A stretch of DNA of 64,000 nt, taken from contig CM114271.1 in NCBI GenBank assembly GCA_050084515.1, positions 1 through 64,000 of the forward strand, read 5' to 3'. Source of the stretch: Blasia pusilla. Taxonomy: Eukaryota. The position numbers and the translations under genes are program-made. Under the pieces are notes generated by a model, which did not search any database, was not told where the DNA came from, and saw only the letters and a list, made by a program, of their open reading frames with translations. Shown one piece after another: positions 2,699 to 64,000 of the stretch; the stretch's first letter is position 1, and each line of letters opens with the position of its first letter.

Positions 2699-2747
2699 GA
2701 AGAGTCAAGCAATTGGGTCATGTGATGGGCAGGAAGTAGATACAAAA

Positions 2748-2838
2748 CCCTAAAACCCTAAACCCCTAAAACCCTAACCCGTGAACCCTAAACCCTTAAC
2801 CCTAAACCCTTAACGCTTAACCCTAAAGCGTTAACCTA
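2748..2838 (+). repeat. Proximal degenerate telomeric repeats
   Basis: Variant units (CCCTTAA, CCCGTGAA, CGCTTAA) lie between a 49-bp non-telomeric insert (2699-2747) and unique sequence. Confidence 0.9.
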
Positions 2839-2839
2839 G

Positions 2840-14300: not shown

Positions 14301-15478
14301 GATAGCTTCCATCACTATGAATTTTATGATGGAAACACATGACTTAAATGCATCGACCTTCTCTGAAGAAACCAGTTATCCAAACCCCTTGCACATGCCT
14401 TCTAGACAAGTGGAATTGAATAGTTGGGGTTGTAAGGATCTTAATGATTTTTGTGGTCATTTTGAAGGTGAATTACCTCTTAAGGGTCAGTTGCAACCTG
14501 CTCTAATTAATTCTCCTATTGTGAAACAAGAGTTTCAGTCTTTCAAACTAATGGCTAGCACAGAGTGGAAGGATTGCAACTTTAGAGATATATGGGCTAT
14601 GGTAAGTTGGAGTCCCTCTTTGCAATGTAAATTTTCAAACTTGTTGGTTTTAGCAAATATTGCTAGAGTCCAATGTGTGAGTACTGCCATTTGTGAGAGA
14701 GCATTCTCCATTTAGAATATGATCAAAAGCAAATCTCGCAATAGATTGTCCACTAAATACTTAGATGCTGTTTTGAGAATTTCCTTAGAAGGATCTTTCT
14801 TTGATAATGAGGAGTTGTTAACTGACTATGTGGTGTTATGGAAAAATTCTGCCCATTTTAGGTATATATTTGCTAGTCCAAAAAAAATATTTGTCTTCAG
14901 ATGTGGGAGAAGACAACAGTGAAATGCTTGTTTAGTAGGATGTTTATAAATTTGTTTGGTAGGGCCCTTCTAGAATACTTGGAGCCCTAAAGCTCCAAGT
15001 ATTCTAGAGGGGGAGGATCCTTGGCTCCCAACCGGTGGGAGTATTATCAGGTTCAATTCTTGCCAAGGATATCATAGAATGTGGAATGGGGAACTTCAAT
15101 AGATGTACTTGAAAGTGAATAGAGTGTTTAGTCTTTAGAATCTAAGTCTTCAGATTGTAGATTTTGGGAGTGAATGAATAAGAAAAGGTGGAATTCCACA
15201 TGAATTTTTTTTTTTCCGGAAATATACCAACGGCCGGATTACTGTTGACGACTTGCAAAAAGAACGGAAATAAGCTGGAGAGCAGAAATTTGGACAGAAA
15301 TTTAACGCGGGAAGAAAAATAATTTTCGGATATCCACAGATTAATATTAAAAATATCAGAAAAAAACTTGTACACATGATAACACCCTCTTGGAGCCGGT
15401 AACCTGTAAAAGAAATCGGGTAATAGAAAATATTACCAGTAATACTCTGGTAGTTCAAAAAAATCTTCCCGAACCCTG
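11365..15478 (+). mobile_element. Full-extent hAT DNA transposon (4114 bp) with 8-bp TSD
   Basis: Flanked by identical GCCGTTAC at 11357-11364 and 15479-15486. Imperfect TIRs (CAATGTT... vs CAGGGTT... on the minus strand). Contains a transposase remnant. Confidence 0.92.
12927..14922 (+). pseudogene. hAT transposase pseudogene
   Basis: SPFFGIMIDESTD, FESDGASTMVG, IRWLSRW, VSTAICERAFS, KSKSRNRL; stops and frameshifts; internal deletion near 14375 relative to the telomeric copy. Confidence 0.92.
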
Positions 15479-17166: not shown

Positions 17167-19990
17167 TGTCACTTCTTTTAAGACAGATCGGTGAGATCTA
17201 GTAGAGTGCCTTTGCAAGTAGTGGAGGATAGACTCAGGTCGTTGAGGATGACCTACTGAGGCCCCGAAAAACCTTAGAGAGTAGGTTTCCCCTTCATTTC
17301 GGCTCATTTGGAGCCATATTCATGAACTTACTATTTTAGGTAAGGTACCATTTTGAATAGGGTAGAATTTAGGGTTTAGGGTAAGTGACCCTTGACCTTC
17401 TACATCAAGTCTAGAGCCAAGGAGGTGACTTGGGAGCATAGGTTACCATGGAGAGTGCTTGGGAGAGGGGAGGGGTATCCTTCAAGGACCCAAGCCTTTC
17501 ATTAGGAGAGTGGGTTTGGTTTGTCATTAAGAGAGATATGTGAGAGTGCACACATTTGAGAGCTATGGTGTTGAGAGAGATTAGATCTTGATTTACAAAG
17601 AGATAATGAGATGAGTGAGAGAGCTTCATGGGGGAGCTCGCTGGTGACTCGATCGCTGGTTTTGCAGGTTGGGGGTCGTAATCCCCATTTAGCGGTGCAT
17701 GGGAGTGCTCATCGGAGCTTGAGCCGCTCATTTTTTTATGTTTCCTTTGCCGTTTTTTTGTGTGGAAGAGTAGCAAGCGGAAGCGCTGCCCAATTTTTTA
17801 TAGGGATTGAGTACGGGGAAAAATTTCTCCATGCCCGTGCTCTCAAGAGCACCTTGTAGCTTGCTAATTTTTATTTTCATAGGTTTTACATTTTCGTTGG
17901 AGAAATCAGCGTGGAAGCGTTGCCAAATTTTGTGAAGGAGAAAGAGACATTGGGCTTTACAATAGTCCCCGTCAATTTTTATTGTAATGTTTGATTGAAA
18001 ATATTTTTGGACACCGTAATAGATTGTGAAGCTCTGCACGCTGTGTAATAGACGATGCGTAATTTGGAGTTGCAAGCAAAAATTATGGTCAATCTTGAAA
18101 AACTGCCATTGATAGGCCTTTTTTAGGGTTAAATTGTTCAAACCCTAAATCAGCCGCCGCGCCTGCGCCGGCCTTCGCCATCATAGTCATCATCAACGGT
18201 CCATCGTTGACAGTCCACCGTCACCATCAACGATCCACCGTCCACTATTGACCATCGTCGGTGCTGCCTAGCGCAACTCAGAGCCGCGTTTGGCCGTTAT
18301 CAACCCTTGGTTGTCATTGCCGTCATTACGGAGTATAGGATCTTCCACGATGACCGTTGATTCTCTGACTTGCGTCGCCACCACGTACTTTGTTTTGGCC
18401 GCCACTATCACTACAGTTTTGTCAACAACCTATGATGGCAGGTGACCTTGGATTATGGTATTTGAGTTTTCATTTCATGCTGCGATGTTGTGATTGGTAG
18501 CCGCTCCACGTGGATTGAGTATCGTGCCGTGACGCCCGTAACCGCAACGCGCCGCTGATTGTCGTGCCATGCCGCTCGTGGCCGCACCGCACCATCTCGA
18601 TCATAGAGCCACTCCTTCACTAAGGAATAGAGCGTGGGAATTGCTGATTCAGGAGGGCACGCCGCCAAGTGCCGCACCCCATTCTCGAGTGTCGTGCCGT
18701 TTGTAGCTGTTCCGTGCCGCCAATGCCACACCATACATCGAGGATGTTTGAGCAGCGTCAGTATGAGAGGAGTATAACATGACCGACTTGGGGTCAAGAT
18801 TTTTAGTTGCCGAGGAGCGACATCGACATTATTGTAAGGTTACCCATTGTGGTCTCTTAGCCTCCATTATTGTGAGGGATTTTCAGGTATTGGGAAGTTA
18901 TTTGGGATATTGGGTTTCGTGTTGATATTGAGAGCATCGATGATATATGGTTTTAGGGGACATAGACCTATGTGGGATGTCCATAGTTGAGGATGGTTTG
19001 TCGATGAGATGATAGACCAGTTGATTTTCCGTACCACGCCGCTTATTGCTGTATAACACACGTCTCAGTCACAGAGGGTAGATTGAGTGCCGCATGTTTA
19101 GTTTGAGTGATTGAGGGATTACTCGTGAGATTGAGAGTGATCGTATGAGAGGGGACACGAGGGCCATCACGGCATCCTTTTGGGATTTTGAGAGGCGAGG
19201 TAGTGGACCTGAGAGTAGCTCTTGAGGGTTTAACCGGAGTGGTGCGAGGTTTTGAGGGTCTTCACGTGAGAGACCACCTCGATCTCCTTCTGTGTCATCT
19301 TCAAAATGGGAGAGCATGTAGAGGAGTGTATTAGTGATACACATTGAGTGGTCCTACCAGTTGGGCATACGAGATGGATGATCGCGGTAGAGGACCACGT
19401 AGGTTTTCGGATGTTATACGCACTATGGAGTTGCATAACTTCATTGCGGAGCTTAGGAGTTGGTATGACTCACTGCGGGCTAGGAAATCTAGAGAGTTCA
19501 ACCCGTTTACAACATGGAACGGTATGTTCTAGAACTTAGAGGGGGCGCCCATGAACGATTATCATGAGTTCTTCCACCGATATGCCCAGGAGATTGAGGA
19601 ATGATGACTTTACTATAACCCATAGTATGTGTCATGGACGAAGCCATTCCCACATAAGGAGGAGGAGTCAGGAGAGGCTACTTCCTCTTCCACTAGTGAT
19701 GTTTTAAGAGGGATCACTCGCAGTGGAGCAGTTGCACCGTCTAGTTGGGTTCGTCCCAGATTCAACCCCGTGGTTGAATTCTTCGCTGAGTTGAGGGCGA
19801 GCTACCAAGGGGTACGGACGGAGAAGTTGCGGAGCATCCACGACTTCCAGAGGTGCCCGGATGAGAATTTGTGTGAGGCTTACACTCACTTGAGCCGATT
19901 GATCAACCTCACTCAAGGGGTGATAGAGGCTAAGGCTATCCAATCATGGTACGCGATGCTCGACCGGGCCCTATGGATACGGGTGCGGGA
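17167..19990 (+). mobile_element. Ty3/gypsy LTR retrotransposon 5' part (LTR ~17167-17775, long leader, degenerate gag)
   Basis: Starts TGTCAC and is colinear with 61105-63180. Gag-like FQRCPDENLCEAYTHLSRLI within 19629-19990. Interrupted by a copia element. Confidence 0.8.
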
Positions 19991-22578
19991 TATTAAAGAT
20001 TGAGTTACAATCAAGCTCATAAGACACCTAAATTGCTACATTTGTTATTCACACGAAGTAGGGAAGCTTAATCTTGGTTAGTCAATTAAGCACGATTATC
20101 TTAACTATAGTTAGTTAATCACAGTTAGTCTAACTCAAGACTATGGTTAAGATTAGGGTTAGGATTTCTTGTACATACCCTATATAATTGAGAAGGGGAC
20201 CAGTCTCCATTCAATCTCTCATTGCAAATTTCGTTCTCCATGGTGGTGTGTGTGTGTGTGAGAGCCATTTTCCACAAATTATGCTTGTTCCACATGGTAT
20301 CAGAGCAATAAGAGAACATCACTTGACATTCTTAGTGTTTGAGGAGAGAAGAGAGACAAAAGAAGGCACAATTTCAATTTCAGAGAAGGAAGTTTTATTG
20401 AGAGCTCAGTGGGTGCAGATTTTAGGTGGAGCTTTGACGGTGATAAAACTTTAGAGGCGCTTTTGAAGGCTTTCCCGATGGATTTAGCCATCTAGGTCTG
20501 CAACGGCTAGAATGAAGTCAAAAGCTAGTTCTGAATGACTTGTAGATCTCGTTGAAGGCTTTCCAACGCACCTAAAATTTCTCGATTTTGACATTCTGAG
20601 CTCCTGCAACAGTAATTTTAGTGTAGGAAAGTGCAATTAATGAAGAAAAGTTGTGAAGTTTGCTTTCTACAAGCCAATTTTGAGTAGTTCTTTCATACAC
20701 TTGATCAATTTTGGAAAATTTCAAGTTGATTTCTGTGTAGGAGTGGTCTATGCTTCAATTAGAGTAGTAGAAAGCCTGAAATTACATTTTTGTAAGTGAA
20801 ATCGTTCGTCATGGAGTATTCCTCAACAACAATCACAGTCGAGAAGCTAAATAAGAAGAATTATAATGTCTGGAAGTTTCGCATGAAAAAATTTCTTATG
20901 GGTCAAGAACTATGGGAGCTTGTCATAGATGATGAGCCTAAGCTAGAAGATGACTCAACAGACTTGAATGTTCACGCTTGGAACAAACGCGCAAGGCAAG
21001 TAATCCATTACATTTCAATAACGATCAGTTCTCCAATGATAGGTCACATTCAAGATGTTGATACTTCAAAGGAGATCTGGGATGCATTGGAAAAGCTGTT
21101 ACAGACATCTACAAAGGCCAAAAATCTTCAATTAAAATAGCAATTGAACGAAGTCAGGAAAAGATCGCAGAGCATCAATGATTATATTTTGAGTATAAGA
21201 CATATTGTTGATCAATTGAATAGCTTTGGAGTCAAAGTAGAAGATGATGATTTGATTTTGTTCACTCTTCAAGACCTTCCAAAGGATTACAAGTCCTTTA
21301 AGACCTCTATTTATGTGAGAGAGAAGTATCCAATCTTTCAAGAGTTAGTCCCTTTGTTAATCAATGAAGAGATGCACCTAGTAGGCAACGGTAGCTCGTA
21401 TAGTCTGCAAGAGAGTGCACTATTTGCATGTTATGGATCAAACAGAGGCAGGGGTCGTGGTAGAAACTTTTGTGGTCGTGGTGGATATCAAGCATATGGA
21501 GGAAAAGACACTTAATATAACATCACTCAATGAATTGTGAACCAGTATCACACACAATTATAAGGTGATGATGACGGAAACCGTTGGGGTTGAGGTTAGT
21601 AGTAGAGGGTCCTTGGATCTTGCAATTACTGTGGAATAAAGAGTTACTATGCAAAGTTTTTCTTCAAGAAGAAGGTAGATATGAGAATATGAGTCTTACA
21701 ACAACAAAACTATGTAGAGCAACAACATCAAGAGTAATACCAAGAACAACAACATTCACAAACGGAACATCTCTTGGTCATATCTTATCATATGGGAGGA
21801 ATGGTCAAGAAAAACTCGATAGCAGATGGGTACGTTGACTCTAGTGCATCAAATCACATGATCTCACAAACTAAATGGTTCAGTAGTTGAGAGCCGGTGA
21901 AAGATCCTACAATTGTGCTCATAGAAGATGACGCTCAACATCATATCACGCATACCGATAAAGTTCCAATAGCATCAGATGGTCTTTGTGCTCTTGGAAA
22001 TGTTCTCTATGTTCCTACCATTGCAAGAAACCTGATCTCTATATGACAGATAGTAGAACATGGTTATCAAGTGAAGTTAAACGTAGATGGTTATTTCATT
22101 GAAACAATGGATGACAAGATTACGATAGCCAAAGGAATTAGATCTGGTAAAATGTTCAAATTAGATGTTTCTATGCTTGAGATTCAAACAGCAATATATG
22201 GTCAAACCGGCCAACAAATCACAGATCTAAATGTGTGGCATAAAAGAATTGGATATTAGAATCTTCAAAAATTATAGAATCTTTCATCATCTAATATAGT
22301 AATAGGACTCCCTAAATTAGCGAGTCTGACTACGTTAGAGGTATGTCCTGTTTGCCAATTTGGAAAACAAATTAGATTTCCTTTTCTAAAGCAAGGTAGA
22401 AGAGCATCCAAGATATTCGAGTGGATTCACAATGATGTGTGGACAACATCACAACATAACCTTAGTGGTTGCCAGTACTTTCTTTCATTTATTGATGATT
22501 TCTCTACTTTCAGAGTTCTAGTAGAGAAGTAGACTTGAGAACACATTCTGAAATTGCATTGTGATGGTGAAGGTGATT
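19991..22578 (+). mobile_element. Ty1/copia retrotransposon, 3'-truncated pseudo-element
   Basis: LTR ends ...CCACA at 20294; Met-tRNA PBS TGGTATCAGAGC at 20295-20306. Gag EKLNKKNYNVWKFRM, zinc knuckle CNYCG, protease WYVDSSASNHM, WHKRIG...CPVCQFGKQ, integrase start WIHNDVW. No RT. LTR start is approximate. Confidence 0.93.
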
Positions 22579-30200: not shown

Positions 30201-32341
30201 TGCCATTCAATTTGGACTTCTCGAGGATGATAGGGAAGCATTATTTTAGTTAAAATAAGCTATAGAGATCCGTACAGGCTCCTCACTTCGTCGACTCTTT
30301 GCCATTATTTTGGCATATAGCACACCTGCTCGACTTGCAGTACTTTGGAGTCAATTTTTGGTTCAACTCATTGAAGATCTTAAATATGAACGATGTGAGG
30401 TAATTCTTTTTCTTCTTTAATTTTAAGGTGTATATGTTGATATTATCCTAGACTTATTACATATTGTGCACATTCCATTGCAGAAAACTGGAATTCCTGA
30501 TCTTCCCCTTGATGCTTCTATCATTAATCACGCTTAATTGGAAGTGCATTATTATCTTCAAGATCAAGGAAATTCATTGTCTGATTTTCCAAACATGCCC
30601 CAAGCTAACTTCCAAACAATTCAATCACGCTCATATCTAGAGGAAGAAGAGTTATTGTATGATCAAGAAGAACTACTCGAGCATGTGGAATTAGAAAAAT
30701 CAAGTTTGAATGAAGGGCAACGTGCTATTTGGGATGCTATACATATTCAACTTCATAATATCTCTACGGATGCTCCACCATGTGCCAAATTTTTTTTCAT
30801 TGAAGGCCCAGGAGGAACAGGAAAGACTTTCCTATACAATCTTCTTCTTGCAAGCGTTAGAAGAAGTGGAGGTATAGCTTTGGCTGTCGCATCATCTGGG
30901 ATAGCTACCCTTTTATTAGATGGAGGACGCACTACGCATTCACGCTTCAAAATTCCTCTAACTCTTGATGAGTTCTCTACTTGCAAGTAAGTGCTTTGCA
31001 CTAAAATTTCTTATTTTATTCATGAGAACTTTCTTTCTTTAGAGAGAAGAGCTAATTTATTTCATTGTGTCATATGTAGCTTGCCAGTTAATAGTGATGG
31101 TGCATGCTTAATCCGACGTGCTAGGCTTATTATATGGCACGAGGCACCCATGACTCATCGTCATGCATTTGAGGCAGTGAATTGTACCTTACAAGATATT
31201 ATGGGAATTTTCTCTAATGACTTGAGGCATATACCATTTGGCGGCAAGCTCATAATTTTGGGTGGGGGTTTTTGCCAAGTCCTACCGGTTGTACTTTGTA
31301 GAGATCACCCAAAAATTGTCCAAGCCACTTTAAAGAGATCAATTTTATGGCCTCATGTGAATGTCATGAAGTTAAGTACAAATATGAGAGTTCAAAGGTT
31401 GGAAGGTCATGAACGTGCTCACCAACAAGCTTTTGCTGATTGGTTATTGGAGGTGGGAGAGGGTAATGTACCTTTGCGAAGTGACTTGGAAGATGATTTT
31501 ATTCAATTGCCACATGATATGGTTTGCCATAGTAACAAGATAAGTGATCTTATTGATACTATATATGGAAACGATCCTCAATTATTTCATGACATCAACT
31601 TTTTGAGAGATGCGGCTATTTTGGCACCAAGAAATAGAGATGTCGACGAGATAAATGCAGAAGTCATGTCTCGATTCCACGGACAGGTAAAGATACAATA
31701 CTATTCCGGTAAATATATTTTGTGATTCTTATTAATGACGAGAGTGGAGCAATATCTAATATATGTATGTATGTTATGTATAGGAGTGTTCTTACCTAAG
31801 TGTTGACTCCATTCCCAATGAGGGGATGAATCATATCTATCCGGCGGAATTCTTGAATACATGCTTACCTTCCGGACTACCACCACATTCTTTGTCATTG
31901 AAAATAGCTGCACCGATCATGCTTCTACAAAATATGAATGGCTGGAGGGGACAAGCAAATGGTACACGATTAGTCATTCGAGGATTTATGCAACATTTGA
32001 TAGATGCTGAAATTATTACAAGAAAGAACATTAGAGATCGCGTTTTCATTCCGCATATCCCATTGATTGTGTCTGACTCCGGTTAACCTTGTGATCTACG
32101 TAGACTTCAATCCCCTATGCGTCCTGCTTTTGCCATAACCATTAATAAGTCACAAGGTCAAACCCTACGGAAAGTTGGAATTTACTTGCCTACTCCTGTT
32201 TTCTTTCATGGCCAATTATATGTAGAATTGTCTAGAGTAGGACATAGAAAATCAATCTAGGTTGCACTTGGAAGTGAAGCACATTCAAGTAAAGAGGTCT
32301 ATTGTACCTGCAATGTAGTTTACAAAGAAGTTCTAAGATAA
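27226..32341 (+). pseudogene. Helitron Rep/Helicase pseudogene (intron-containing)
   Basis: CPSCHALHW zinc motif; LPSSFSGGPRHMHQLYQDA; LFLTMTCNPKW; HUH motif EFQKRGLPHVHILI; DNRWVVPYNP; Walker [39 protein letters not shown]; terminal NVVYKEVLR*. Many stops. No 3' CTAG terminus seen. Confidence 0.97.
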
Positions 32342-35032: not shown

Positions 35033-36752
35033 TTATCAATAGGCGACATTCTACAGTAGTGTGTTTGGTGGAGCTAGTTTGCCACTATTTACATAATCGA
35101 GAACTCGGCGAACATTATCACTCCGGGCGGAATTCTTCCGCACTCTGTTTGGTGGAGCTAGTGGCTATTCACAATATCGGATACCCGGCGGCTGTTATCA
35201 CTTGGCGGCATTCTACGGCAGAATTCTATATTTATAGAATCCGGAACTTGGTGGTTACCATACGAGAGGAATATTGTGAACCATAGTTGGGCTCTCATCC
35301 TAAACTGCATTCTTTGTTCTTATCCAGGGGTGAACCATAGTTGAGCTCTCATCCTAAAGTGCACTCCGTGTTCTTATCCAATGTGCTACTTCTTACGATA
35401 TCTATATCCAATTACAAGAAAAAATGGAATCATCTATTCTACTACAATGAAAGAAAGTTCTCGGGGCTGCATTAGGGGCGAAGTCTCCTGAGGGGGCCCC
35501 TCAAGAAATTTCCTTGCGCCCCGGAAATCTCTACGGCCTTGCATCTGGAAAACTCCCCTCAAAATTTATAGATTTCATCCAACAACATCTCATCTCCCAA
35601 CTCTTTTATGTTCAACTCTTTTACCTCCTACTAGGCCTGGTAGTAGTTTACGTTTCTTCCCTGTTTCTACGACCGTCTTTTCCAACTCAAACAGTATAAA
35701 GCTTAGGTCGCGTCACCCACGGAAGATCCGAATATAAAACTTAATAGAAAAGGGGATGGAAACCCATCAGGATACAAGACGAAGAGACGAGAATTCGATG
35801 AGAGAGAAGGAACGATGTGGATCCAACTACCTACCATTCCCGACGTCCCAGTCGGGTGGGAGTCGGGCTTCAGTCGGCGATGGACACGAGGATTGTACGT
35901 AGGGCAGAGTCCACCATGAGCCGCAACAGACCGTTCAGTCATGAATCCTGCGATTTGGAGGAGACGGGAGGGCGCGGCGGAGCTCTACGGGATGGCGGTG
36001 GGGATGGGAAGGAGATTGATGCTGGGATGGAGGATGGAGGGGGGTCGTGTGTTATATCAAAACGGAGATACCGACTTCCTCTATGTTTTGATCCGTAGCG
36101 TCAATCTTCTAGTGAAGTATTTTTCATTTTATTTTGTTTTGTAGAGTTTTGTTGTTTTAGGGTTTCTCATGTAGGTATTAGGGTCCTCTTTGTTTTCTGG
36201 TTTTGTTGTAATGCTTTGAATGTTTCCAAGACAACTCATGTTGTTATTCCACACCACCCTTTTTTTTTTTCTCTATGTCCTTATTCTGTTGCCACACACG
36301 TTCCTCCTTCACGTTTGACCCATGTTTTTCTCCCTTATCCCACTCTATTCCCATCTATTTTTTCCATCTATTCTTTTTCCATATCATTAGTACCTCCATA
36401 CTATCTCTACATTATTTTGGGAAGGGGTTGGGCCATATGTCATAGGTGAAGATGGTAGATGAGAGTTCATACTAGGGAGAGCATTTCCGTGGATGGGAAG
36501 AGAGTCGATTACCATTAGGGCTAGTTTGAATGGGGGTTGTGGGGCGGATTTTGGTGGGGTTTGTCTCTCGAGTTTGAGGGAGGGGGTCATGTTCTCTTCT
36601 TGGTGAGAGGTGTCCGTGCCTCGCCCGCATCAGCCCCTTGTGTAGGGGCTCGTGGGTCATCTAGCTAGGATACGAAATGCCCTTGTTGTCCGGAATTCTT
36701 CACTCCTTCAGGAATTCGGAACTATTTAGCGGCTGAACATCCTGACTTTGAT

Positions 36753-38500
36753 ATGTGGGTGGTTTCTCCAATCGATCATGGATGCTCAGTGGTGCTTCAT
36801 GCATCATCGCCCCCTCCCAAGGCATGGGAGTGGTTGAGGTCCCACCCTGGCAGCATCACAGGTCTCTTTGAGACCCGTTTTCCCTGCCCGAGGTTGTTTC
36901 ATAGGATCCCCCATGCTATTCCGGATGCGCTTTGCCAGTCTTTCCTCCCTCCCTTATCTAGGATCGCACTTGATCCTATGGATGAGCTCTCCTGGTATCT
37001 ACTACCTCTCCTTCCACGATGGTGTCTTCGCTATACCCGAGGAGGGAAGGCTGGCCATAGAGAGGTTGTGGCCCGATTGCGGCGCTTCCGAGGAGGTGAT
37101 TGGGAGTCTCTGCAGAGTGAGTTCGTGGCATATGCCAGAGGTAGCACTCCACGTGGTTTCCTAGTAGACGATCTTGTAGCTCCCAGATTGCGACGATGTA
37201 GGAGACTTGGGAGAGCTAGGGAGTACTCGCAAAATGCTCGTGCGCTCCGCCCTATGGATATGGCTCCTCCTTCCGCTATTACTATCGACGCCCTCCGGAG
37301 GCTCCACCCTCGTCCACTGGTTGACATCCCAACATTTGTACATGACTTCCATCCTGACACGACCTTATGCCTAGACCCATCCCTCTTTCCACGGGCACTC
37401 AAGCATTCCCCTAGGATAGCAGCTAGAGGGTTGTCCGGTATGATGTACGAACACCTTGGTGATTGCTTTCCCTCCGAGGACTCAGCTAGCGGCTTTTCTG
37501 AGTTGCTTCAGGTTGCCTCTCACCTACCTTAGGGGAGAGTTCCAACAGTAGTAGCCCACGTATTGGGGGCGGGGTGACTTTTGGCGTTATCGAAGGAGGG
37601 TGGAGGGATCCGTCCGATTGCCATAGGGGAGGTGCTCTTGCGGTTGGTGAGTTGCACTATCGCTTTGCAGTTCCGTGAGGCTTTCAATACATCCGAGTCC
37701 GCACTTTTGATTCGGAGTTGCTACGTGAGCCGGTTGTGAGGCTGTAGCCTTAGGTTTGAGGGCTTGTTTAGATATACATCCCAAGTGGGTGGTTCTCCAA
37801 GTTGATGTGGAGAACGCCTTTAACTCACTGTATCGGGCAGCTATCTTCACGGAGCTGAGAGACGCAAGGGGTCCCATAGCGAGCCTGATTCCCTTCGTGC
37901 ATGCTTTTTATGGGGCCCCCTCGGCTCTCTATTTTCACCACGGTAGGTTCGAGGAGGAGGTCACGGTCTTGGAGTCTGCTATTGGGACGCGTCAGGATGA
38001 TCCCTTGGGTGGTGCATTGTTTGCTTTGGCTCATTATCTAGCAGTTCTTTCTAATGTGGAGGCTTTTGTGGGTTGCATTTTCCCTTCTTTGGCACATGAT
38101 ACTCACATTGTCGGCCCTGGAGACTTGGTTGTTCCTGCATTTCAGCAGTTTTCAGCATAGTTGGCACACATTGGCCTTGCGGTGAAGGTGGGAAAGTGCA
38201 AGGCATGGTCTTCATTAGGCTTGTCAGCATATATTCATTTACCCGACGGTATTTTGACACCTGCTCGAGGGCTTCGCGTCTAGGGAGTCCCACTCGGGAG
38301 CCAAGACTTTGTATCGAGTTTTGTGGCGGCGGCTCTTACCGAGGATCTTCTTCATGTCGAGGATCTCACGAGGACTTGTGACCCTCAAGTAGCTTATGGA
38401 ATCCTCTCGTAATGTTATGCCCGTAGACCTGGTTATCTGTGTAGAACCGTGTGGGCGACTAGCCATATTTCTTCCTTGTATGGATCCTTTGATAGAAAGA
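36753..38500 (+). mobile_element. Non-LTR retrotransposon RT pseudogene, CRE-clade-like, 3'-truncated
   Basis: ARGLSGMMYEHL; KEGGGIRPIAIGEVLLRLV; LQVDVENAFNS; GTRQDDPLG; FPSLAHDTHIVG (degenerate ADD); GLAVKVGKC; GVPLGS. Confidence 0.85.
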
Positions 38501-41994: not shown

Positions 41995-42245
41995 ACCAGA
42001 AAACTGGTATTGCAAAGACGAATTTACTCAATGAAGATGAGCTCGACCTCGACTATGCATTCTCACCTCAGCATTATGAAAACATGGCGGCCACTATGAT
42101 GAATAGTGTGACCCAAGACTCCTACGGGGACTTCATAAACTCTCTAGCCCTGAGAGAGAGGACGCCTACTTTTCCTGAACTATGCACACTCCTACTTGAC
42201 GAAGAGAGGAGACGCAACGACCTTGCTGCCCAAGGAGGACAAGAG
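41995..42245 (+). pseudogene. Copia gag (UBN2-like) fragment
   Basis: KLVLQRRIYSMKM... and DSYGDFINSLALRERTPTFPELCTLLLDEERR. Confidence 0.6.
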
Positions 42246-42249
42246 TCGG

Positions 42250-42666
42250 GACTCTCAAGATGGTGCGCCTTGCACTCACATTGAACGTCGTGGGTGCCGT
42301 GTGTTGCAAGTAGACATAGTCTCCCTAATGAAACCTCCAAATAGTAGGTGGATAACCACCTCCCTGAATAGTTGCATTCTTCAAAGTATCTCGATGTTGT
42401 GCAATCACCAAGTTCTCAAACGCCATGGGCATCACTCTCCGAAATAACTCAGCCCTCTGAGAATATACTCGCATCCATAAATCAGGGTCATCAAGGTTCA
42501 ACACCTCACCAACATCTCTACGAATGGCCGCAAGTAAATTTGGCTCTCGACCATAAAAAAGCAAGTACGGTGAGAAAGTCGCTAAGGATGCTTGCATGTT
42601 GAATTTGTATCCCATCACCAACCACGGCAACTGAAGGTCCCAATCTCCTAGGTGACTTCTCTGCAA
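42250..42666 (-). pseudogene. Ty3/gypsy integrase C-terminal fragment
   Basis: DWDLQLPWLVMGY...FSPYLLFYGREP...AFENLVIAQHRD...RFH*GDYVYL. Confidence 0.85.
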
Positions 42667-42671
42667 GCCAT

Positions 42672-42962
42672 CAGTAGAAGAAAACAGTGGTTTTTATGAC
42701 TAGAATTGAACTGATTGAGGTTCTTCAGGACTTGAATATATGACTAGAATGTCCTCTGGTCATACAATAGTCATATCTTTCACCAAAAGAAGGAAATATT
42801 AGTCATATTAGAACATTACTAAGTCCTACAATAAGTCTGGGTGATAGTTTAGTAATATATGAAATGACTTAATAATCTTTTAGTGATATATAAGCAAGAT
42901 GTCTCAACTTCTAGTCATGTAAAATAGCAATATGACTCAATGACATGGATTTTTCTAGTTTG
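42672..42962. mobile_element. CACTA-like terminal region with subterminal repeats
   Basis: Begins CAGTAGAAGAAAA (CACTA-like). ATGACT/AGTCAT recurs at least 7 times in both orientations; similar motifs occur at ~60820-60925. Confidence 0.45.
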
Positions 42963-45866: not shown

Positions 45867-47056
45867 TCCGACGGGTTGCATCTCTGCATGCAGCCCGTCG
45901 GATTGTCTGAGCTGGTAACTGCGGTGTTGCAATCCGTCTGAAAGCGACGGTTTGCAAATTTACCACAAGTCTCCATTGGATGAATGCGACCCGTCGAAAA
46001 CCGACGGGTTGCAAGTGCTTATGCTTTTCCTTGTGTTTTTGGAATGATGCAACTTGACCGAGAAAGCGACGGGTTGCTCTTAGCCAACCATGGGCTGCTC
46101 TAAGCCAGCAACGTGTCGACTTCCGACGGGTTGCTCATGGCAAAAAAAATCACTAACACTTGTAAAACAAGTCGTCGGACTCGATAGGTTGCTCCAATGT
46201 TAGGACTATAACGAAGTTCTCTAGGGTTAAGCAAAGTTCTTTGGGGACGTGTTGCACATTGTGTCACCATACTGAGAGAAGACCAGCATTCAAGTAGCTC
46301 TTTCTTGTTGCTGATATTATTTCCAACCTGCTTCTTTACAGATGGACCACTCCTATATTTACTGCTTTGCTCGGCCCGAGCACAACTTCCAAGTGTTTAA
46401 GATCCTCAATCCAGTGGATCCATGATCCGATGGGTACAACTTAGATAGCTTATACAATTCCCCCTCAGGAATTTACATGCAAGACGGTACCCCCATGCTT
46501 GGAGGAAGGGCAAAGTCGCCAGCCCTCATGCAAACGCTCATCAAGCTCTGCTCAGGGCGTGTGACTTGGTGTTCGACTTAGTGGGCCTTTTAGGGGCGAG
46601 TATTAGAGGCCCTTGGCATAGTGGTAGGAACATTCTCTGCCTTGAGGGAAGGCAAGACATGTTTGACCTTTGCAAAGAGGCAAAGCCAGATTACGACAGG
46701 CTAGTTAGGGCGTACAACTCTCCTCCGAAGCCGAGAGCTCCGGTTCCAGACCCACCATTGGTAGTGACACCATCGTCACTTCCCACGATTTCGAAAATCG
46801 GGAGGGCAAGGTCGACTATAATTCTGGAAGAGCTCTCGGACGATGACTCGTGAGTTCAAAAACTCAAGGACCTAGCTTGACTACAACATTTTGGAGTAGG
46901 GATTTATTTGATGACGAGGCAGAAGAATTCATAGAATAGATCAAACGTAGAGTTCCAAGCTTCCTTAAGATGTAATAAAGGACAAGATTTTTTCGAACGA
47001 TGATGGTGTTTGTAAAATTTTGCTGAGTTGCAACCTGTAAAATTCCGACGGGTTGG
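45867..47056. repeat. Dispersed CCGACGGGTTGC motif cluster (transposon subterminal-like)
   Basis: The motif or close variants occur in both orientations at ~45868, 45893, 45945, 45990, 46001, 46067, 46123, 46182 and 47044. Confidence 0.7.
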
Positions 47057-47820
47057 GAGGGGTGCAGCTTCTCAGTTTCTCAGATTTAGGATCTGAATGA
47101 AGGGACATTAGTTCCTCTTTACTCTAGACAACTAACAATATTTTGGTTCAATTATTGTCTCGTATGTTCACGTTTCACAAAGTTGGTCTTTATTTGAACC
47201 TTTCGTTGAGATGAGATTGCTACTTCTCGTCAAATTATTTGCCAATGGTCCTCCAACAAAAATACCCCTAGGCACAGCTAACTGTAGACTGAGATAGGCA
47301 ATGTGAAGAAACTTAGGCTCTTATGGAGAGTGATGGAAAAATTTTTGTAGTGGTCTTATGATGTCTACTTGTTTTCACCCCTGGAAAAAAGGAGGTTTCT
47401 TTAGGCCCAAATATGGACCACTACCTACTCTCTTCTAAAGATTTCATGAATTTGAAAGCAAACAAAAATTTCAAATATGTCAAAAAGTTTTGAAGAGAGG
47501 AGGCGGATTTGGCCCTTTTTTTTTAAGAGAGACTCTCCTCTCTTCCTCTCCTCTCTTCCTCTATCCTACAAGAGTACCAGCCCTCCTTGTAGGAGAGTTA
47601 GATATGTTCTCCAGCGTACATTTTGGAGAACGTGTCTTTGTTGGGAGACACTCGTGCACGTGTGATGACGAGTGTGCATGAAGTGAGGTCTTGGTTAGGA
47701 CATGCTGTGTTGCTAGATGGAGCGAGAGTTGGATCACGTGCCCATCGTGCATGACTGTGGTGGACGAACTTGATACCATCAGAGGTACTGAGTCAAGCAT
47801 ATGATAAAGTCCAGAGAGCA

Positions 47821-48190
47821 CCACATCTCACAATGGATACTATTTTGGGCTCACGGCGTTGATCTTAGGTGGTGACGCCGGATGATAGACCATTGTTGGC
47901 CATGGCCAATAGGGTGGGGGAGTTGAGGGCAGCCTTACCTACGTTGGTGAGCTTCCCAACATCCCATGCCTTTTGTCAGGGAGGGCCAGGCATGATTTGG
48001 GATGAGGTGACCGGAGCATTGGAGGAGCCTATAGCACATGAGCGCGAGCGCGCCATGGGGTTTGCTACAAGTACTACGGCGGTGCCATGTATCACAGAGG
48101 CATCTCGGAGACAAGTGTTGGGGCAGGCAATGGACCTCAACTGTCTCACATGGATAGCCATCCTAGGTATGGCTGAGCAGAGACGGATGC
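47821..48190 (+). pseudogene. C-terminal part of a C5 cytosine DNA methyltransferase domain within a gypsy pol
   Basis: EEPIAHERERAMGF...T...EASRRQVLGQAMD matches the motif IX-X pattern (E-x-E-R-x-x-G-F...T...R-x-x-L-G). Motifs I-VIII are absent because of 5' truncation. Confidence 0.72.
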
Positions 48191-48467
48191 GAGTGTCATC
48201 CATGTCGTCACGTCCACGAGTTGGACCATTGTCTACAGCGTCTGTAGAGGCATTGGCTGGGAACGGACGAGGAGAGATAGGCACCCATGGACTTCTTGGG
48301 ACGTCGTTCGAGCGGAGAGTGCAAAGGCGTCCAAAGTAGCACATGTTCATTTTTTGGATGTAGAGCATGGTGTAGGAGGTCAGAGTGGAGTGGTTGTTGC
48401 GGAGATGGCTAGGGTTGCTACATAGCAACCAAAGCCAGAGGTTGCGTCCTCTCCAAGTGAGATCACA

Positions 48468-49611
48468 ATGGAGACTTGGGAGCATGTGATAGGTCTCAAG
48501 TTGATAGGAGGAGAGCGACGGCGAGTTCATAGCTTTCTGAGAGGGCATGTTAGTTGTTTTGCCTTCAGTATGAGAGACTTGGGTACGCTGAAGGGTCCTA
48601 GGATACGGATTGAGATGGCTAGTGATACGCTGATCTTTCCTCGACCCTACAGGTATTCTCATATGGAGCGAACCTTGATTCAGAGCAGGATTCAAGACTT
48701 GTTGGAGGCAGGCCTTGTGGAGTTATCACATGGGGAGTATGCATCTGCCATAGTCATGCCGGCGAAGAAGGATATGTATGGCAATTGGACGGATAGGCAG
48801 ATGTGTGGAGATTACCGTCCTATCAACCAACAGACGAGGTCAGATTGGTACGTCATGCCTACTCCTGAGGAGATCTTTGATGCGGTAGGGCATGCAAAGA
48901 TCTTCAGTACTTTAGATCTCCGTGTTGGCTATCATACGCTTCCTATCAGGTTGGAGGACCGGGAGAAGACAACATTCTGGGGGATAGATTGGTTTGGGAG
49001 AGATTGCTTGTATTAGTGGCGGTTCTTACCGTTTGGGTTGAAGAATGCACCTGTAGAGTTTTAGAGAGTGATGGATAGGATTCTCACTGGCTTGGATTTT
49101 GAACGATGTGACATAGATGATATTCTTATCTTCACTTCCATGGTTGAGGAGCATGAGTGACACTTGGAGCAGGTGCTTCGGCGATTGTAGTTAGATGGAC
49201 TGAAGTTACATCCAGGCAAGTGCAGATTCTTTCAAGAGCACATTGAGTACTTGGGACACACCATATACTTGAGTGGGTAAGGCGTTCAGCAGACGAAGGT
49301 GGAGGCTATTGCGCAGATTCCACGCCCTACACATGTGAGTCAAGTCCGAGCAACATTGCCAAGGTGAAGTACAACTCCTACGCGGGAGAGTGCTTGGCTG
49401 CAGTGTGGGCCGTGGCACATTTCAAGTGCTATTTATTCAGAAATCCTTTCACACTTATCAGTGATCATCAGCCGTTGAGGTGGTTGATGCAGTTCGACAA
49501 GCTTACGGGAAAGATTGCCATGTGGGCTCTATTACCACAGCAGTATGAGTTTAAGGTGGTTCATAGGTTAGGTTGGCTGAACCAAGATGCGGATGGGTTG
49601 AGTCGTAACCC
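48468..49611 (+). pseudogene. Ty3/gypsy reverse transcriptase + RNase H remnant
   Basis: RPYRYS; MCGDYRPIN; FSTLDLRVGYH; LPFGLKNAP; CDIDDILI; LKLHPGKC; then, after an internal deletion, ECLAAVWAV, SDHQPLRW and NQDADGLSRNP. Confidence 0.96.
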
Positions 49612-49622
49612 TAAACCCTAAA

Positions 49623-50668
49623 CCCACCTTTCCCTTCTTTCTCCTTCCCCTTACTTGCCTTTGTGTTCCATACTCCCCCGTTTCTTGCTCCCTCTACCTC
49701 CACTCCCTCCTCTCTCATTGCTCCACTTATCCTTGCCTTGCATTCCATCATGGATTATAAAGTGTGGGTCCCACCTCTTGGAACCCATGTTTGTCCTAAG
49801 GAAGGACTTGTCCATTTTTTTGCAACCATCATTGATAATATTTGTCGAGTCCTCGATATTGTAACTAGCCTCCAATACTGTAAATAGTTGCAAGCTCCGA
49901 TGAACACGTTGTAGAAGAATGCCGCCAAGTGATAATATTTGTCTTTTCCGCGATATTGTAAATAGCTGTCACCTTCACCAATGAATGCTTTTAGGATGCC
50001 GCAAGGTGAAATTAGTCTTCAGGTCCCCCATGCTGTAAAAAGCCGCTATCTCCATTGAACATAATGAGGCAGAATGCCGCCAAGTGATAAAAGACGTTGG
50101 GTCCTTGAGACTCTAAAAATCCGCCAACTCCACCTGACACACTACGGCAGAATGTTGCCAAGTGACAATAGCCAACAAACCCCCGATATAGTAAATAGCC
50201 GCCAGCTCCGCCGGACAAACGGTGGAAAAATTTGAGAGACTTCTTAAGCAACTTTGGAGGGAAACTTCCTAGCTAATACAACCCCCTGCAAAGATTCATT
50301 CCTTGTGAGGCTTTCATACCGTGCCACATAAGATGCCGTACAGTACAGAGGGAGCACATTGGATAAGAATTGAGAGTGTAGTTTAGGGTGAAAGCACCGT
50401 TGTGGTTCAAAGGTTAATCTCTAAATTTTACTTACACATTTAATTTACTTGCTGCACCTAATCATTCAAAAATCTCAATCATTCTCCTATTGTTCATGCG
50501 AGCATGTTCATTAGATTTGATGCTTTAAGAATGGACGGTAGGGAGTCGGCTTGAGTGACATTGGGCACATCGTCCAAAGATAATGCTTGAGACTTGAGAA
50601 AACACCATTTTCCTCTTGATGAGAAAAGCCTATTCATAGGTGATGATGACATTGAGAAGAAGTATGCA
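49623..50668 (-). repeat. Inverted copy of the 33998-34941 repeat
   Basis: Reverse-complement match, with ~100 bp extra near 50025-50130. Confidence 0.92.
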
Positions 50669-51949
50669 GTGTATGGATGACGGCCTTTGGTGTCAGAGTC
50701 CAAAGCCGTGGTTGACTTGTGGAAAGCTTCCATATTCAAAAATAAGCCTAATCTTGAAGGATAAAGTCTGGAAGAAGGTATGGACTCTTTAGTTACTCCA
50801 AAGTTGTGAGTGTGTGAATGTTGGAAAGGTAGGAAGGGTAGCTTGCGTGTATTTTAAGCGCCGGGTAAGAAGGAATCCTCGGCAAGATAATCACCAAGGC
50901 TGATATTTTGTAATGCAATCAGCGGATTCCAAAAGTTGGAATGCAAGTATAGTCTTTTCTTTTGGGGTTGTGGAACTTTTGAGATGCTCATACGCTTGTG
51001 GACCCACTCCTTACAAACGTTGCTCACATGTTGTGCAGCCCAAAGACAATCTGATTGGATGACTTTGAGTTTGCACTTGATTGTTGAATCAGATGCTCTC
51101 TTAGTGTTAGAGAAAACAATTGTGTGCGGACAAAGAAATGCCATCGGCTTCAGACTTGCAGATATGGAGCTAAGATAAGAGGGAAAGGGTTTCTTGAGAG
51201 AATCAAGGGAAAAGCATTTAGTGAAAATGAGCATGCGGATCAAAGATGATGGTGTGTACCGGTGTGATGAAGTGAAATGCATGACGGGAGAGGATGCATA
51301 TTCAAAGAAAAAATGCCTTGTACATGCAAGAGTTGATAGTCTAAGAGACGATGGGGTAGTGGTGGAGAAAAGCCGCCAAAATATTCCTTCAAGACACATT
51401 GTTAGCGAAAATTCTCTCTCAACTAGCTATAGCAACTTTCATGGGTGCTATATATGGTAGGTGTAAATATTTAAGTCCATTGGGATTGGGGCCTACCTTG
51501 GAGAGCCAATCTGCAACGACGACTAAAGATTGCAAGCTTTTATCAGAGTAAATTTTGTCTCTCATTGCCTTGTTGCCCAAGAGCATGGATACCCACTTGA
51601 CGGCTAATCATAGACTCCCTCTAGTAGCCGTTCTCCGCTAGCAAAGCATGGACATTCCAGCATCAAGTGTTTGGGGGCAACAAGAAAGAAATGAGGACCC
51701 TACAATTCCTAGGGATTATATTGGTACACACGCACCATGGCATCCACAACATTCCAAGAGGCCACACCGCCTTGTCCTTAGAAGTTCCTTCATTGAGGTA
51801 TTGCCATCCTCAAAGGATTTTGCTGAAAGAAGGAGGAAGCGTGGAGAAATATCAAAGGATAAAGAGGTATCCACCATGACTTGAAATGGTGCACGCGGTG
51901 AATTTTCAAGGTACCTTTGTATGGAAAATGAGAAGGGACGACCCAAGAT

Positions 51950-61104: not shown

Positions 61105-64000
61105 TGTCACGTCTTTTAGGATAGATTGGTGAGATCTAGTAGAGCGCCTTCGTGAGTAGTGGAGGACAAGCTCCGTAGGTCTAGGATGATCAACTGAGGC
61201 CTTGAGAAACTTGAGAGAGCATGTTTCCCCTTCGTTTCGGCTCATTTGGAGCCATATTGAGGAACTTACTATTTCAGGTAAGTACCATTTTGAGTATATG
61301 ATCAACTTTCTATTTTTGTTAAGTGGCCCTTGACCTCCTACATCAAATCAAGAGCCAAAGAGGTGACTTGGGAGCATAGGTTAACATGGAGAGAGCTTGG
61401 GAGAGGGGAGGGGTATACTTCAAGGAGAGAGAGCTTGAGAGCTCATTCTCTCTTTGTTGAACCTCTTGGGATGAGGCGGCGGAGCTATGGTCTTTCTTGC
61501 CTTGTGTGTGTAACCCAAACCTCTCATTAGGAGAGTGGGTTTGGTTTGACATTGAGTAAGACATGTGAGAACTATGGTGTTGTGAGAGAGATTGGATCAT
61601 ATTTTACAAAGAGAGAATGAGTGAGTGAGAGAGCTTCATGGGGGAGCTTGTTGGTCACTCGTTGGTTTGGCAAGTTGGGGATCGTATTCCCCGTTCAGCG
61701 GTTCATGGGAGTGCTCACCGGCGTCAGAGCCGCTTACTTGTGATGTTTCCTTTGCCGATTTTTCGTGGGGAAGAGTGACACGCGGAAGTGCTGCCCAATT
61801 TTCGATAGGAATTGAGTATGGGGCGGATTGCTCCATGCCGGTGCTCTCATGAGCATCATGTAGCTTCCTTATTTGTCTTCTTATAGGTTTTATATTTTCT
61901 GGGGGAGAAATCAGCGCAGAAGCGTTGCCAAATTTTGTGTATTAGAAAGAGACATTGGGTTTTACGACAATCCCTTCATTATTACTCGAATGTTTGATTC
62001 AAAATATTTCTTGACGCCATTGTAAATTGCAAAGTTATGCATGCTTTGCAACAAACAATGCACAATTTGGAGATGCGAGCAAAAATTTATGGTCAATCTT
62101 GCAAAACTTCCATTGCTAGGCATTTTTTAGGGTTAAATTGTTCAAACCCTAAACCAGCCGCCGTCGTCATACTCACCATCAACGGTCAACCATCATCATC
62201 GATGGTGAACCATCACCATCAACGTTCAACTTTCACCATCAACGGTCCGCCGTCACCATCAACATCAATGGTCCACCGTCCACCGTCGGCCGCTGTCGCC
62301 GCCTACCGCTGCTCAGAGCCGCGTTCCGCCGTTGTCCACCCTTTGGTTGCCATTTTTGCCATTACGAAGTGGAGGGTCTTCCACGAGGACCGTTGATTCT
62401 TTCACTTGCGCCGCCATCACGTACTTTGTTTTGGCCGCCACCGTCATTGTAGTTTCGTCATCAAGCAGTGATGGCAGATGACCTCGGGTTATGGTTTTTT
62501 AGTTTTCATTTCATGCTGCTATGCTGTAATTGGTAGCCGCTTAACAAAAATCGAGTACCATACCGTGATGCCCGTAGCCGCAACTGGACGCCGATTGGCG
62601 TGCCGTGCCGCTCGTGGCCGCACCGTACCGTCTTGACCGCGGAGCCGCTCCTTCACTAAGGATCAGAGCGTGTGAATTGCTGATTGAGGAGGGTGACGCC
62701 AAGTGCCGCACTCCATTACCGAGTTCCATGTCATTAAGAGCTATTCCGTGCCGTACTAGACTGCTAGACCTGCACTGTACATCGAGGAGGTTTGAGGGGC
62801 GTCAATACGAGAGGAGTCCAACTTTCCGATTGGAGGAGTTGTCTTCACAACCGAGTTGGGGTCGAGATTTGCAGTTGTCGAGGAGCGACATCGATATTAT
62901 TGTCAAGTTACCTATTCTGGTCTCTTAAGCTGCACGTGTGAGTGATTTTTGGGTATTGGGAAGTTATTTGGGATATTGTTTCGTGCTGATGCTGAGAGCA
63001 TCAATGATGTATGGATTTAGGGGACATAGACGTGTGTGGGATGTCCAGAGTTAAGGATGGTTTGTCGATGAGATGGTAGATCAGTTGATTTGCCGGACCG
63101 CGCCGCTTGTTGTCGTACAACACACGTCTCACTGAGAGAGTGTAGATTGGGTGCCGCATGTTTAGTTTTAGTGATTGAGGGATGGATCCTGATCAGAGTC
63201 GATGGGTCCTGATCAGAGTTTATGGAGAGTTGGTGATGTTGTTAGTATGCAGGCACGGAGGGCGATGGGAGAAGTGAGTGCGACGATTGCTGATGCTCAA
63301 GAGGGGCATGTGTCGAGCACGTTGTTGGGGGCGGCCACCATTGAGTACCAAGCTCCTTTATTTTCTGCTTCCGATGTTATGACGTTGGGAGGTACGCCCG
63401 CCCAGGTTTTTTAGCTGGCTGCTACACTATGTGAGCGTGGAGTTGGAGTTCTTGCATCACGTTCAAAGGTGATTGTAGAGGAGGTGCCCTTGGAGCGGAT
63501 GCTCGGGCGGTCCACGTCAGATTCATGGCAGGCTCCGGCTGCTAGGATGGCAGAGATGCCCGCTAGACCCGCGATAGAGCGTGCCATGGCTTCTCCTAGT
63601 GTTGTGTTGCTTGATAACCAGGGAGAGGTCTTCCAATTGGTGAGTCACGTAGGAAGAGCTTTTAGTCCGCAGCGTGTCTTATTGGATTCAGGAGCGCAAC
63701 CCTTGATGTTGGGGAATGTGTCATTCAGAGAATTGGGCTTGACGAGAGCCGATGTGGAGCGTTGTCCATTCCGGATAAAGACATCATTGGATGGAGCTAG
63801 TACCACACAGTATATCATCCGACAAGAGGTCATGGTGAGGATTCGCTCGAGACATCCTACAGATGAGTCGGTGGTGCGAGCCAAGGCAATACTGACTGAT
63901 GTAGAGTCCTACGACGTCTTGGTTGGTAGAGCAGTGTCATACCCGATGGGGTTTTCCGTGGATTACTGGGAGGAGTCGGCATCTTACGGACCAGGATGGC
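61105..64000 (+). mobile_element. Ty3/gypsy element (LTR 61105-61780, leader, internal deletion, protease), runs off the window
   Basis: LTR bounded by TGTCAC...GTGACA; colinear with 17167-19120 up to ~63183. Confidence 0.85.
63415..64000 (+). pseudogene. Retroviral-type aspartic protease region of gypsy pol (open to the window end)
   Basis: Stop-free frame containing RVLLDSGAQPLMLG and YDVLVG. Confidence 0.85.

Follow-up and report, generated by a model that had tools for sequence, protein, structure and literature searches.

Does a gypsy retrotransposon of a plant carry its own cytosine DNA methyltransferase? The question is raised by a locus within the 64,000 nucleotides of Blasia pusilla DNA analysed here (contig CM114271.1 of assembly GCA_050084515.1, positions 1 to 64,000, forward strand; the window in what follows), for which the initial annotation had claimed a gypsy element with a C5 DNA methyltransferase (DNMT) domain upstream of the reverse transcriptase (RT). 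Transposons are normally the targets of methylation, and a transposon carrying a de novo enzyme reverses this relationship. We read positions 47569–49618 on the plus strand as a decayed, doubly truncated internal fragment of a Ty3/gypsy element without long terminal repeats (LTRs), derived from a family whose pol contains, after the protease and ahead of RT, a C5 methyltransferase domain of the DNMT3 type, and we assign this reading a probability of roughly 0.92. The polyprotein of the family runs from gag (CCHC) through protease (PR), DNMT3-type C5 cytosine methyltransferase, RT and RNase H (RH) to integrase (IN).

The window copy and its relatives

Longer relatives of the window piece were retrieved by a word-indexed search of 5.8 billion proteins, which gave 45 matches with expectation values (E) of 1e-41 to 2e-12. 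A precomputed PF00145 assignment is present in 25 of the 45, and the 16 that are named all come from bryophytes: 11 from Marchantia polymorpha, two from Calypogeia fissa and one each from Riccia sorocarpa, Sphagnum jensenii and Sphagnum fallax. The nearest relatives of the window copy are 55–63% identical to it and, together with the tree described below, make a bryophyte the most likely source of the window; one public Marchantia relative is named DNA (cytosine-5)-methyltransferase by UniRef. In tblastn with the long relatives, DNMT, linker, RT and RNase H fall on the window as a single colinear block: residues 1011–1229 of the Marchantia protein P0007 match 47608–48264 in one frame with 63% identity (E 7e-75), weaker alignments extend the DNMT homology in the 5' direction to 47569, and residues 696–950 of P0038 match the RT at 48477–49358 (E 4e-105). 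P0038, a single Marchantia open reading frame (ORF), scores in Pfam for PF00145 (35 bits, cut-off 22), RVT_1, RT_RNaseH and RT_RNaseH_2, and it is this colinearity with single ORFs of relatives that upholds the claim of a C5 DNMT domain upstream of RT in a gypsy element. The RT-RNase H part of P0038 finds its best match in yeast Ty3 (4ol8, E 4e-48; 7q5b, E 1.4e-47), which places the element in the Ty3/gypsy class. P0007, which carries PF00145, is annotated at its source as a CCHC-type protein, and P0030 exhibits an integrase core (rve) downstream of RT (Pfam). The integrase of the PR-DNMT-RT-RH-IN layout proposed in the initial annotation is seen in relatives only, and not in the window copy.

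The order of these domains also bears on the question of whether the window merely holds a host DNMT3 pseudogene that came to lie beside an unrelated gypsy RT fragment, by nested insertion or by chance. Such a juxtaposition would fit a copy that lacks LTRs and whose 5' end abuts another repeat with the opposite RNA strand bias (46988–47575), but it does not fit the recurrence of both the DNMT-linker-RT order and the linker sequence in single ORFs of Marchantia and Sphagnum proteins, nor the 23 proteins that show DNMT upstream of RT in one chain, nor the repetition of the DNMT part by about 200–280 fold in DNA reads; furthermore, neither PWWP nor ADD domains were scored in the 16 relatives scanned with Pfam. 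We consider a bystander pseudogene to be hardly credible, and the reading as a piece of a DNMT-bearing element is retained.

Much of the fine structure described in the initial annotation is accurate: the frame at 47869–48339 (156 aa) and the peptide at 48022–48153 within it are exactly as claimed. The tblastn alignments likewise pass from frame 1 into frame 3 near 48265, as described, and a stop is indeed present at 48423, ahead of the RT frame. The start of the DNMT part had been placed too far downstream, with homology beginning approximately 250 bp before it in the same frame and including motif VI and the motif VIII region. Of the catalytic motifs that had been listed as lost, I and IV are indeed absent, whilst motif VI is present as ENV in this same frame (Table 1). 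The window copy hence retains motif VI, a motif VIII interrupted by a stop, and motifs IX and X; the parts of the element that precede motif VI or follow the RNase H are gone, the 3' end lying at ~49618 with no integrase beyond. A sensitive tblastn search for the N-terminal half of the DNMT with motifs I and IV, run on the upstream sequence and on the entire window, returned only nine residues at ENV.

What remains is heavily damaged. Within the homologous DNMT part, the stops at 47752, 47860 and 47866 stand where relatives show Arg or Gln, which is the outcome expected of C-to-T decay; the stop in the motif VIII region occupies the position of the second Arg of the RxR motif in relatives. Two further stops (47590 and 47599) are found at the 5' edge of the DNMT part and six more in the RT (49014, 49062, 49158, 49188, 49278 and 49365), where the YxDD box has become DIDD and Pfam RVT_1 yields an E of 0.029, under cut-off. 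In comparison with P0038, some 78 residues are absent between RT and RNase H (tblastn). The HPWTSWD linker, on the other side of the RT, is kept in relatives. The window copy is a relic and is non-functional now: it has accumulated about a dozen stops, a frameshift of its own and changes in the active-site box of the RT, and does nothing. Its ratio of observed to expected CpG (0.62, against 0.67 for the window) gives no distinctive signal.

The family to which this relic belongs was followed in the source organism by mapping the reads of a DNA run and of three RNA runs from this species onto 46400–50800, with reads counted from 85% likeness. Summed DNA depth reached about 2000–2800 over the DNMT part and up to ~5700 over the RT, against ~10 over 49928–50800, so that the fragment lies at about 200–570 times the single-copy flank and the DNMT part itself at about 200–280 fold. 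This points to hundreds of family copies in the source genome, and agrees with the claim that the source plant hosts such a family. Most of the DNA reads (94338 of 103646) are less than 95% alike to the window copy, with 770 at a likeness of at least 99%, and the window copy is consequently an old, diverged member of a large family. One extra base at the frameshift was seen in 868 of 1515 and 185 of 1277 family DNA reads, from which it follows that most copies read from DNMT through the linker into RT without this frameshift; in addition, 3054 DNA reads continue into other sequence at 49611, confirming the 3' truncation. Each RNA run contributed 670–716 reads with a strong strand bias (for example 48 against 5 over 48752–48898), at a depth of 0.5–11 over the DNMT part and 10–55 over RT and RNase H. 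As just 1, 3 and 1 reads of the three runs were at least 99% alike to the window copy, these low-level transcripts come from other copies.

Several observations weigh against the interpretation of this locus as a fragment of a DNMT-bearing gypsy element. Flanking LTR-like direct repeats of at least 60 nt were not found between 40 and 58 kb in the window, and the window copy is connected to neither LTRs nor integrase, protease or gag sequences, the retrotransposon label resting on homology and read depth only. When taken by themselves, the open pieces of the window match no Pfam model (PF00145 included), NCBIfam model or PDB chain in the methyltransferase part, so that the PF00145 profile check that the initial annotation had recommended for the window translation came back empty and the identity as a methyltransferase rests on the relatives and their profile. 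The PF00145 model covers the relatives only at motifs IV–VI, which are mostly missing from the window copy. Other gypsy families may have contributed to the depth over the RT, and just a partial fit was obtained for 82492 of the 103646 DNA reads, which makes the copy number a rough one. Finally, the transcripts are sense transcripts on the condition that the libraries, whose type is unstated, are of the dUTP type.

Table 1. Positions of the fragment's parts and of separate pieces of the same element group within the window.
Feature	Position	Strand	Remarks
DNMT3-type C5 methyltransferase, C-terminal two thirds (motifs VI–X and target-recognition region)	47569–48264	+	Frame 1; tblastn, alignment to relatives
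Motif VI (ENV)	47626–47634	+	In frame 1
Motif VIII region (GSRAHRA, stop, LWWTNL)	47731–47772	+	Pairs with AHRARYFWGNL of DNMT3A in profile match
Motif IX (ERERAMGF)	48040–48063	+	Profile pairs with DNMT3A motif IX
Motif X (LGQAMDLN)	48118–48141	+	Alignment; DNMT3A profile match stops at first three residues
Copy-specific frameshift (frame 1 to 3)	48264–48266	+	tblastn frames
DNMT-RT linker with HPWTSWD motif	48267–48467	+	Frame 3; stop at 48423
Ty3/gypsy RT	48468–49358	+	Frame 3; tblastn
RNase H	49340–49618	+	Frame 2; PF17917, E 3e-15; tblastn to P0038 residues 1029–1119 (49340–49609)
gag fragment, same element group, separate	19353–19997	+	45% identity to P0007 residues 9–211; stops present
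Protease-region fragment (upstream of DNMT in relatives), same element group, separate	63277–63999	+	tblastn; runs past window end

Identity of the methyltransferase domain

In full-length relatives, the C5 methyltransferase motifs I (DLFGGISTGL), IV (AGWPCQG), VI (YILENV), VIII (GSRAHRxRLWWTNL, containing RxR), IX (ERERAMGF) and X (LGQAMDLN) are found in canonical order; intact relatives exhibiting motifs I, IV and VI occur in Marchantia, Sphagnum, Calypogeia and Riccia. By the initial annotation's own criterion, full-length members that lack motifs I, IV and VI upstream would have refuted its claim, and the opposite was observed: the relatives carry all three, and P0038 carries them together with RT in the same ORF. 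Scores of the relatives against PF00145 lie between 25 and 47 bits (cut-off 22), and residues E, A, M, G and F of motif IX are invariant in the alignment of the family (A4).

A profile of 20 relatives (A1) was searched against all PDB sequences and matched, in order, DNMT3A (9e-20), DNMT3C (2e-17), DNMT3B (4e-16), a plant DRM-type chain (2e-9) and HaeIII/HhaI (1e-7 to 1e-6), with DNMT2 at 2e-3. The assignment of 48022–48153 to motifs IX–X, made by comparison with a stretch of DNMT3A, is reproduced by the family profile, which pairs these positions with that same stretch (motif IX and the start of X), and the fold search agrees; the paired DNMT3A stretch is weak when considered alone (independent E about 18) and is colinear with a strong first stretch. 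Amongst methyltransferases, a PDB search with the single sequence of P0038 recovered only DNMT3A/B/C. An AlphaFold2 model of the relative P0002 displayed a mean predicted local distance difference test score (pLDDT) of 72.5, with the domain mostly at 80–90, and matched DNMT3A/3B/3C with E about 1e-16 and template modelling (TM) scores of 0.76–0.81 (target length, ~330 columns), these three enzymes making up all the matches listed; through this fold match the whole catalytic domain is covered, including the C-terminal motifs. By profile and fold, the domain is closer to DNMT3 than to DNMT1, DNMT2, DRM or the bacterial enzymes.

With the catalytic domain of host DNMT3A/3B/3C, which constitutes its best profile and fold match, the domain shares motifs I–X in canonical order and a short target-recognition region. 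It differs from these host enzymes in its sequence (~21% identity in the fold alignment), in the absence of PWWP and ADD domains and in being embedded in a retrotransposon polyprotein, which in one of the two architectures described below (type B) also exhibits a PHD finger after the integrase. The plant enzyme DRM2, a DNMT3-related de novo methyltransferase, is matched weakly by the profile (E 2e-9 to 2e-6) and at the N-terminal motifs only; as stated in the text of de Mendoza et al. 2018 (PMC5890265), the motifs of DRM are permuted, whereas those of the elements described here maintain the canonical order.

Distribution, predicted activity and origin of the family

An exhaustive HMMER search of 1.84 billion cluster representatives with the DNMT-only profile A4 returned 10538 matches at E ≤1e-3, of which 2485 reached ≤1e-10 and 497 reached ≤1e-30. 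The best 150 of the 10538 all have an E of 1e-68 or better, many of them being polyproteins of 1000–3456 aa, and among these 150 none of those scanned resembled a host enzyme. Two architectures were recognised in 16 proteins with Pfam: gag-PR-DNMT-RT-RH(-IN), which we term type A, and RT-RH-DNMT-IN-PHD, or type B. In a set of 299 domain-bearing proteins, biased by the fact that one contributing search was seeded with a type B protein and with sequences clustered at 50% or 90% identity, 23 are of type A (DNMT upstream of RT in one chain), 137 are of type B and 139 are without RT. The named type B proteins belong to the chlorophytes Haematococcus lacustris, Monoraphidium neglectum and Chromochloris zofingiensis; type A is also found in the streptophyte algae Closterium sp. 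NIES-53 and NIES-65. The chlorophyte elements share with the bryophyte elements the subfamily of the DNMT (their domains score E 1e-76 to 1e-104 with the type A profile), the conserved motifs and a Ty3/gypsy RT, but differ in the location of the DNMT between RNase H and integrase, in their C-terminal PHD finger and in motifs IV and VI, which mostly read ECQ and ENT.

The residues required for catalysis are largely maintained across these proteins. All 137 type B domains and 16 of 17 type A domains have the catalytic Cys of motif IV; the Glu and Asn of ENV are found in all 137 of type B, and in type A in 19/19 (Glu) and 16/19 (Asn) cases. Over the 299 domains the AHRxR motif is kept and the motif I glycines are almost invariant. 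As the catalytic residues are conserved, an active enzyme is predicted: the domain of intact members is probably a functional de novo methyltransferase dependent on S-adenosylmethionine. Alternatively, the domain could be an inactive DNMT3 fold that, like DNMT3L, serves the elements by binding DNA or chromatin, given that the Pro of motif IV is replaced by Glu (ECQ rather than PCQ) in 98/137 type B and 11/17 type A domains and that PF00145 matches just the part from motif IV to VI with its 25–47 bits. Near-invariance of the catalytic Cys, of Glu and Asn in ENV, of the motif I glycines and of RxR in 299 sequences is, however, not expected of dead folds of the DNMT3L kind, and the bryophyte clade keeps the canonical PCQ; for the Klebsormidium elements, moreover, conserved key residues and a Ka/Ks below 0.2 are given in the text of de Mendoza et al. 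2018 (PMC5890265). We thus regard a dead binding module as quite improbable in comparison with an active enzyme.

Intact members would produce the DNMT as part of pol, and at protease processing it would be either released or left fused. It might then act on the newly made cDNA of the element itself, as the initial annotation had suggested, or on DNA at or around the integration site. That the cDNA is the substrate is a tentative proposal that we would not favour at even odds, the substrate and benefit steps both being guesses: the element might gain by passing for methylated DNA of the host, by being shielded from deaminases, by restraining its own copy number or by steering its integration. 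Methylation of cDNA has already been put forward for DIRS elements, namely for SymbioDIRS-Dnmt3 of Symbiodinium, in the text of de Mendoza et al. 2018 (PMC5890265); according to this description SymbioDIRS-Dnmt3 likewise bears a DNMT3-type domain in pol, but, as a DIRS element, it has a tyrosine recombinase, resides in a dinoflagellate and possesses an RT of unrelated lineage.

The relationships between the two architectures were analysed using an unrooted IQ-TREE phylogeny (LG+G4) of 109 rows, with Shimodaira–Hasegawa-like approximate likelihood ratio test (SH-aLRT) values as the only support. These rows comprise those of P0001–P0059 with a domain of at least 180 aa, the remaining named proteins, 45 random near-full domains and the window copy with its stops given as X, leaving about 190 domain-bearing proteins and host DNMT3 outside the tree. 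A split with support 99 separates a 48-row clade, with all type B proteins and the named chlorophytes, from a 61-row clade containing all type A proteins, Closterium and the bryophytes. Within the latter, 28 rows form a clade (support 96) that includes Marchantia, Riccia, Calypogeia and Sphagnum as well as the window copy, which stands beside one further protein (support 87).

Two histories can be set against these data. The bryophyte elements could have captured a host DNMT3 independently of the Gypsy elements of Klebsormidium and the chlorophytes, a convergence that would account for the differing position of the domain (PR-DNMT-RT versus RH-DNMT-IN-PHD) and would be in keeping with the stress placed on recurrent acquisition in the text of de Mendoza et al. 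2018 (PMC5890265); no Klebsormidium-named protein turned up in the searches for relatives, so that none was compared. A single profile nevertheless recovers type A and type B domains alike (E 1e-68 to 1e-132), while DNMT3A reaches only 9e-20 against the related profile A1, and family-specific stretches are common to both types (a WWTNL-like stretch, ERERAMGF/Y and the Asp of GQAMD). The grouping of Closterium with the bryophytes on the type A side (99 SH-aLRT) also speaks against convergence, if only suggestively in a tree without host DNMT3. Independent capture appears unlikely to us. Descent from a single source is a possibility to which we lend somewhat less than even weight: in this case, the Gypsy-DNMT3 elements would form one old green-plant lineage with two domain orders, RT-RH-DNMT-IN-PHD in chlorophytes and PR-DNMT-RT in streptophyte algae and bryophytes. 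At least one land plant would harbour hundreds of copies of this family, with transcription continuing. Were such a single old lineage real, methylation by the host could be supplemented or disturbed by a de novo methyltransferase that transposons encode.

Elements of this kind have already been published as the Gypsy-DNMT3 of streptophytes, exemplified by KnitGypsy-Dnmt3 of Klebsormidium nitens (2018), which the text of de Mendoza et al. 2018 (PMC5890265) treats as an acquisition in that lineage. We compared KnitGypsy-Dnmt3 by its published description rather than by sequences, domain order or DIRS-like repeat layout; at this level, the common features are a non-rearranged DNMT3-type domain in the pol ORF of a streptophyte Gypsy LTR element, the retention of catalytic residues and the presence of multiple copies. 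The hosts differ, being land plants here (Marchantia, Riccia, Calypogeia and Sphagnum) together with Closterium, as does the abundance, with hundreds of copies in our source organism versus the few described for K. nitens. The cases published in the text of PMC5890265 are from dinoflagellates and one charophyte alga, and the words Marchantia, Sphagnum and liverwort are absent from its main text, although its figures and supplements could list such copies. For the term 'streptophytes (Gypsy-DNMT3)', the passages seen of a 2025 survey (PMC12344493) and a 2026 preprint (10.64898/2026.05.21.726589) cite just de Mendoza 2018. A full-text literature search, covering mainly the main text of papers outside subscription journals, found no account of gypsy elements with a DNMT in either bryophytes or chlorophytes. 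Three points deserve mention: the kind extends to land plants, its copy number is high, and chlorophytes show a second architecture. The window copy itself represents ordinary decay. The abundance of the family in bryophytes, including the laboratory model Marchantia polymorpha where it is present in the annotated proteins, provides a tractable land-plant system in which both the benefit of the enzyme to the element and its leakage onto host DNA could be addressed.

Other features of the window

The window opens with a plant-type telomere array at 1–2698 (381 copies of a 7-nt unit in CCCTAAA register, 95% matches), which indicates that it begins at a chromosome end and that the DNMT-gypsy fragment lies ~45 kb away from this. 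Apart from the gag and protease-region fragments of the same element group (Table 1), several remnants of other mobile elements are present. Similar peptide stretches are shared by two hAT-like transposase remnants on the plus strand (13151–14715 and 3569–4057), whose matches are zf-C17orf113 (E 1e-7) and DUF4371 (E 2e-4, under cut-off). Two adjoining frames at 30538–31725 (+), perhaps beginning from 27220, give PIF1-like helicase matches (PF05970, E 2e-27 and 3e-34) of the sort found in Helitron-type transposons and are interrupted by a stop. The long frames at 36669–38160 (+; 287 and 143 aa) resemble a long interspersed nuclear element (LINE, non-LTR) by eye and gave no Pfam match at E ≤0.01, and 42169–42738 on the minus strand resembles the region of a gypsy polyprotein past the integrase core (E down to 9e-32), belonging either to another copy or to another family.

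The sequence just 5' of the fragment (46400–47575) is highly repeated in DNA reads, with a summed depth of about 1300–3000, and no polyprotein matched it. The RNA strand bias reverses at ~46988 and DNA reads reveal several rearranged joints, for example from 47489 back to 47158; together, depth, strand flip and joints indicate that at least two other repeats adjoin the 5' break. On the 3' side, about 160–180 DNA reads each join 49813 and 49815 back to 49623 with few letters between, which suggests a tandem unit of ~190 bp near 49623–49815 in other copies, and from ~49928 onward the depth is at single-copy level.

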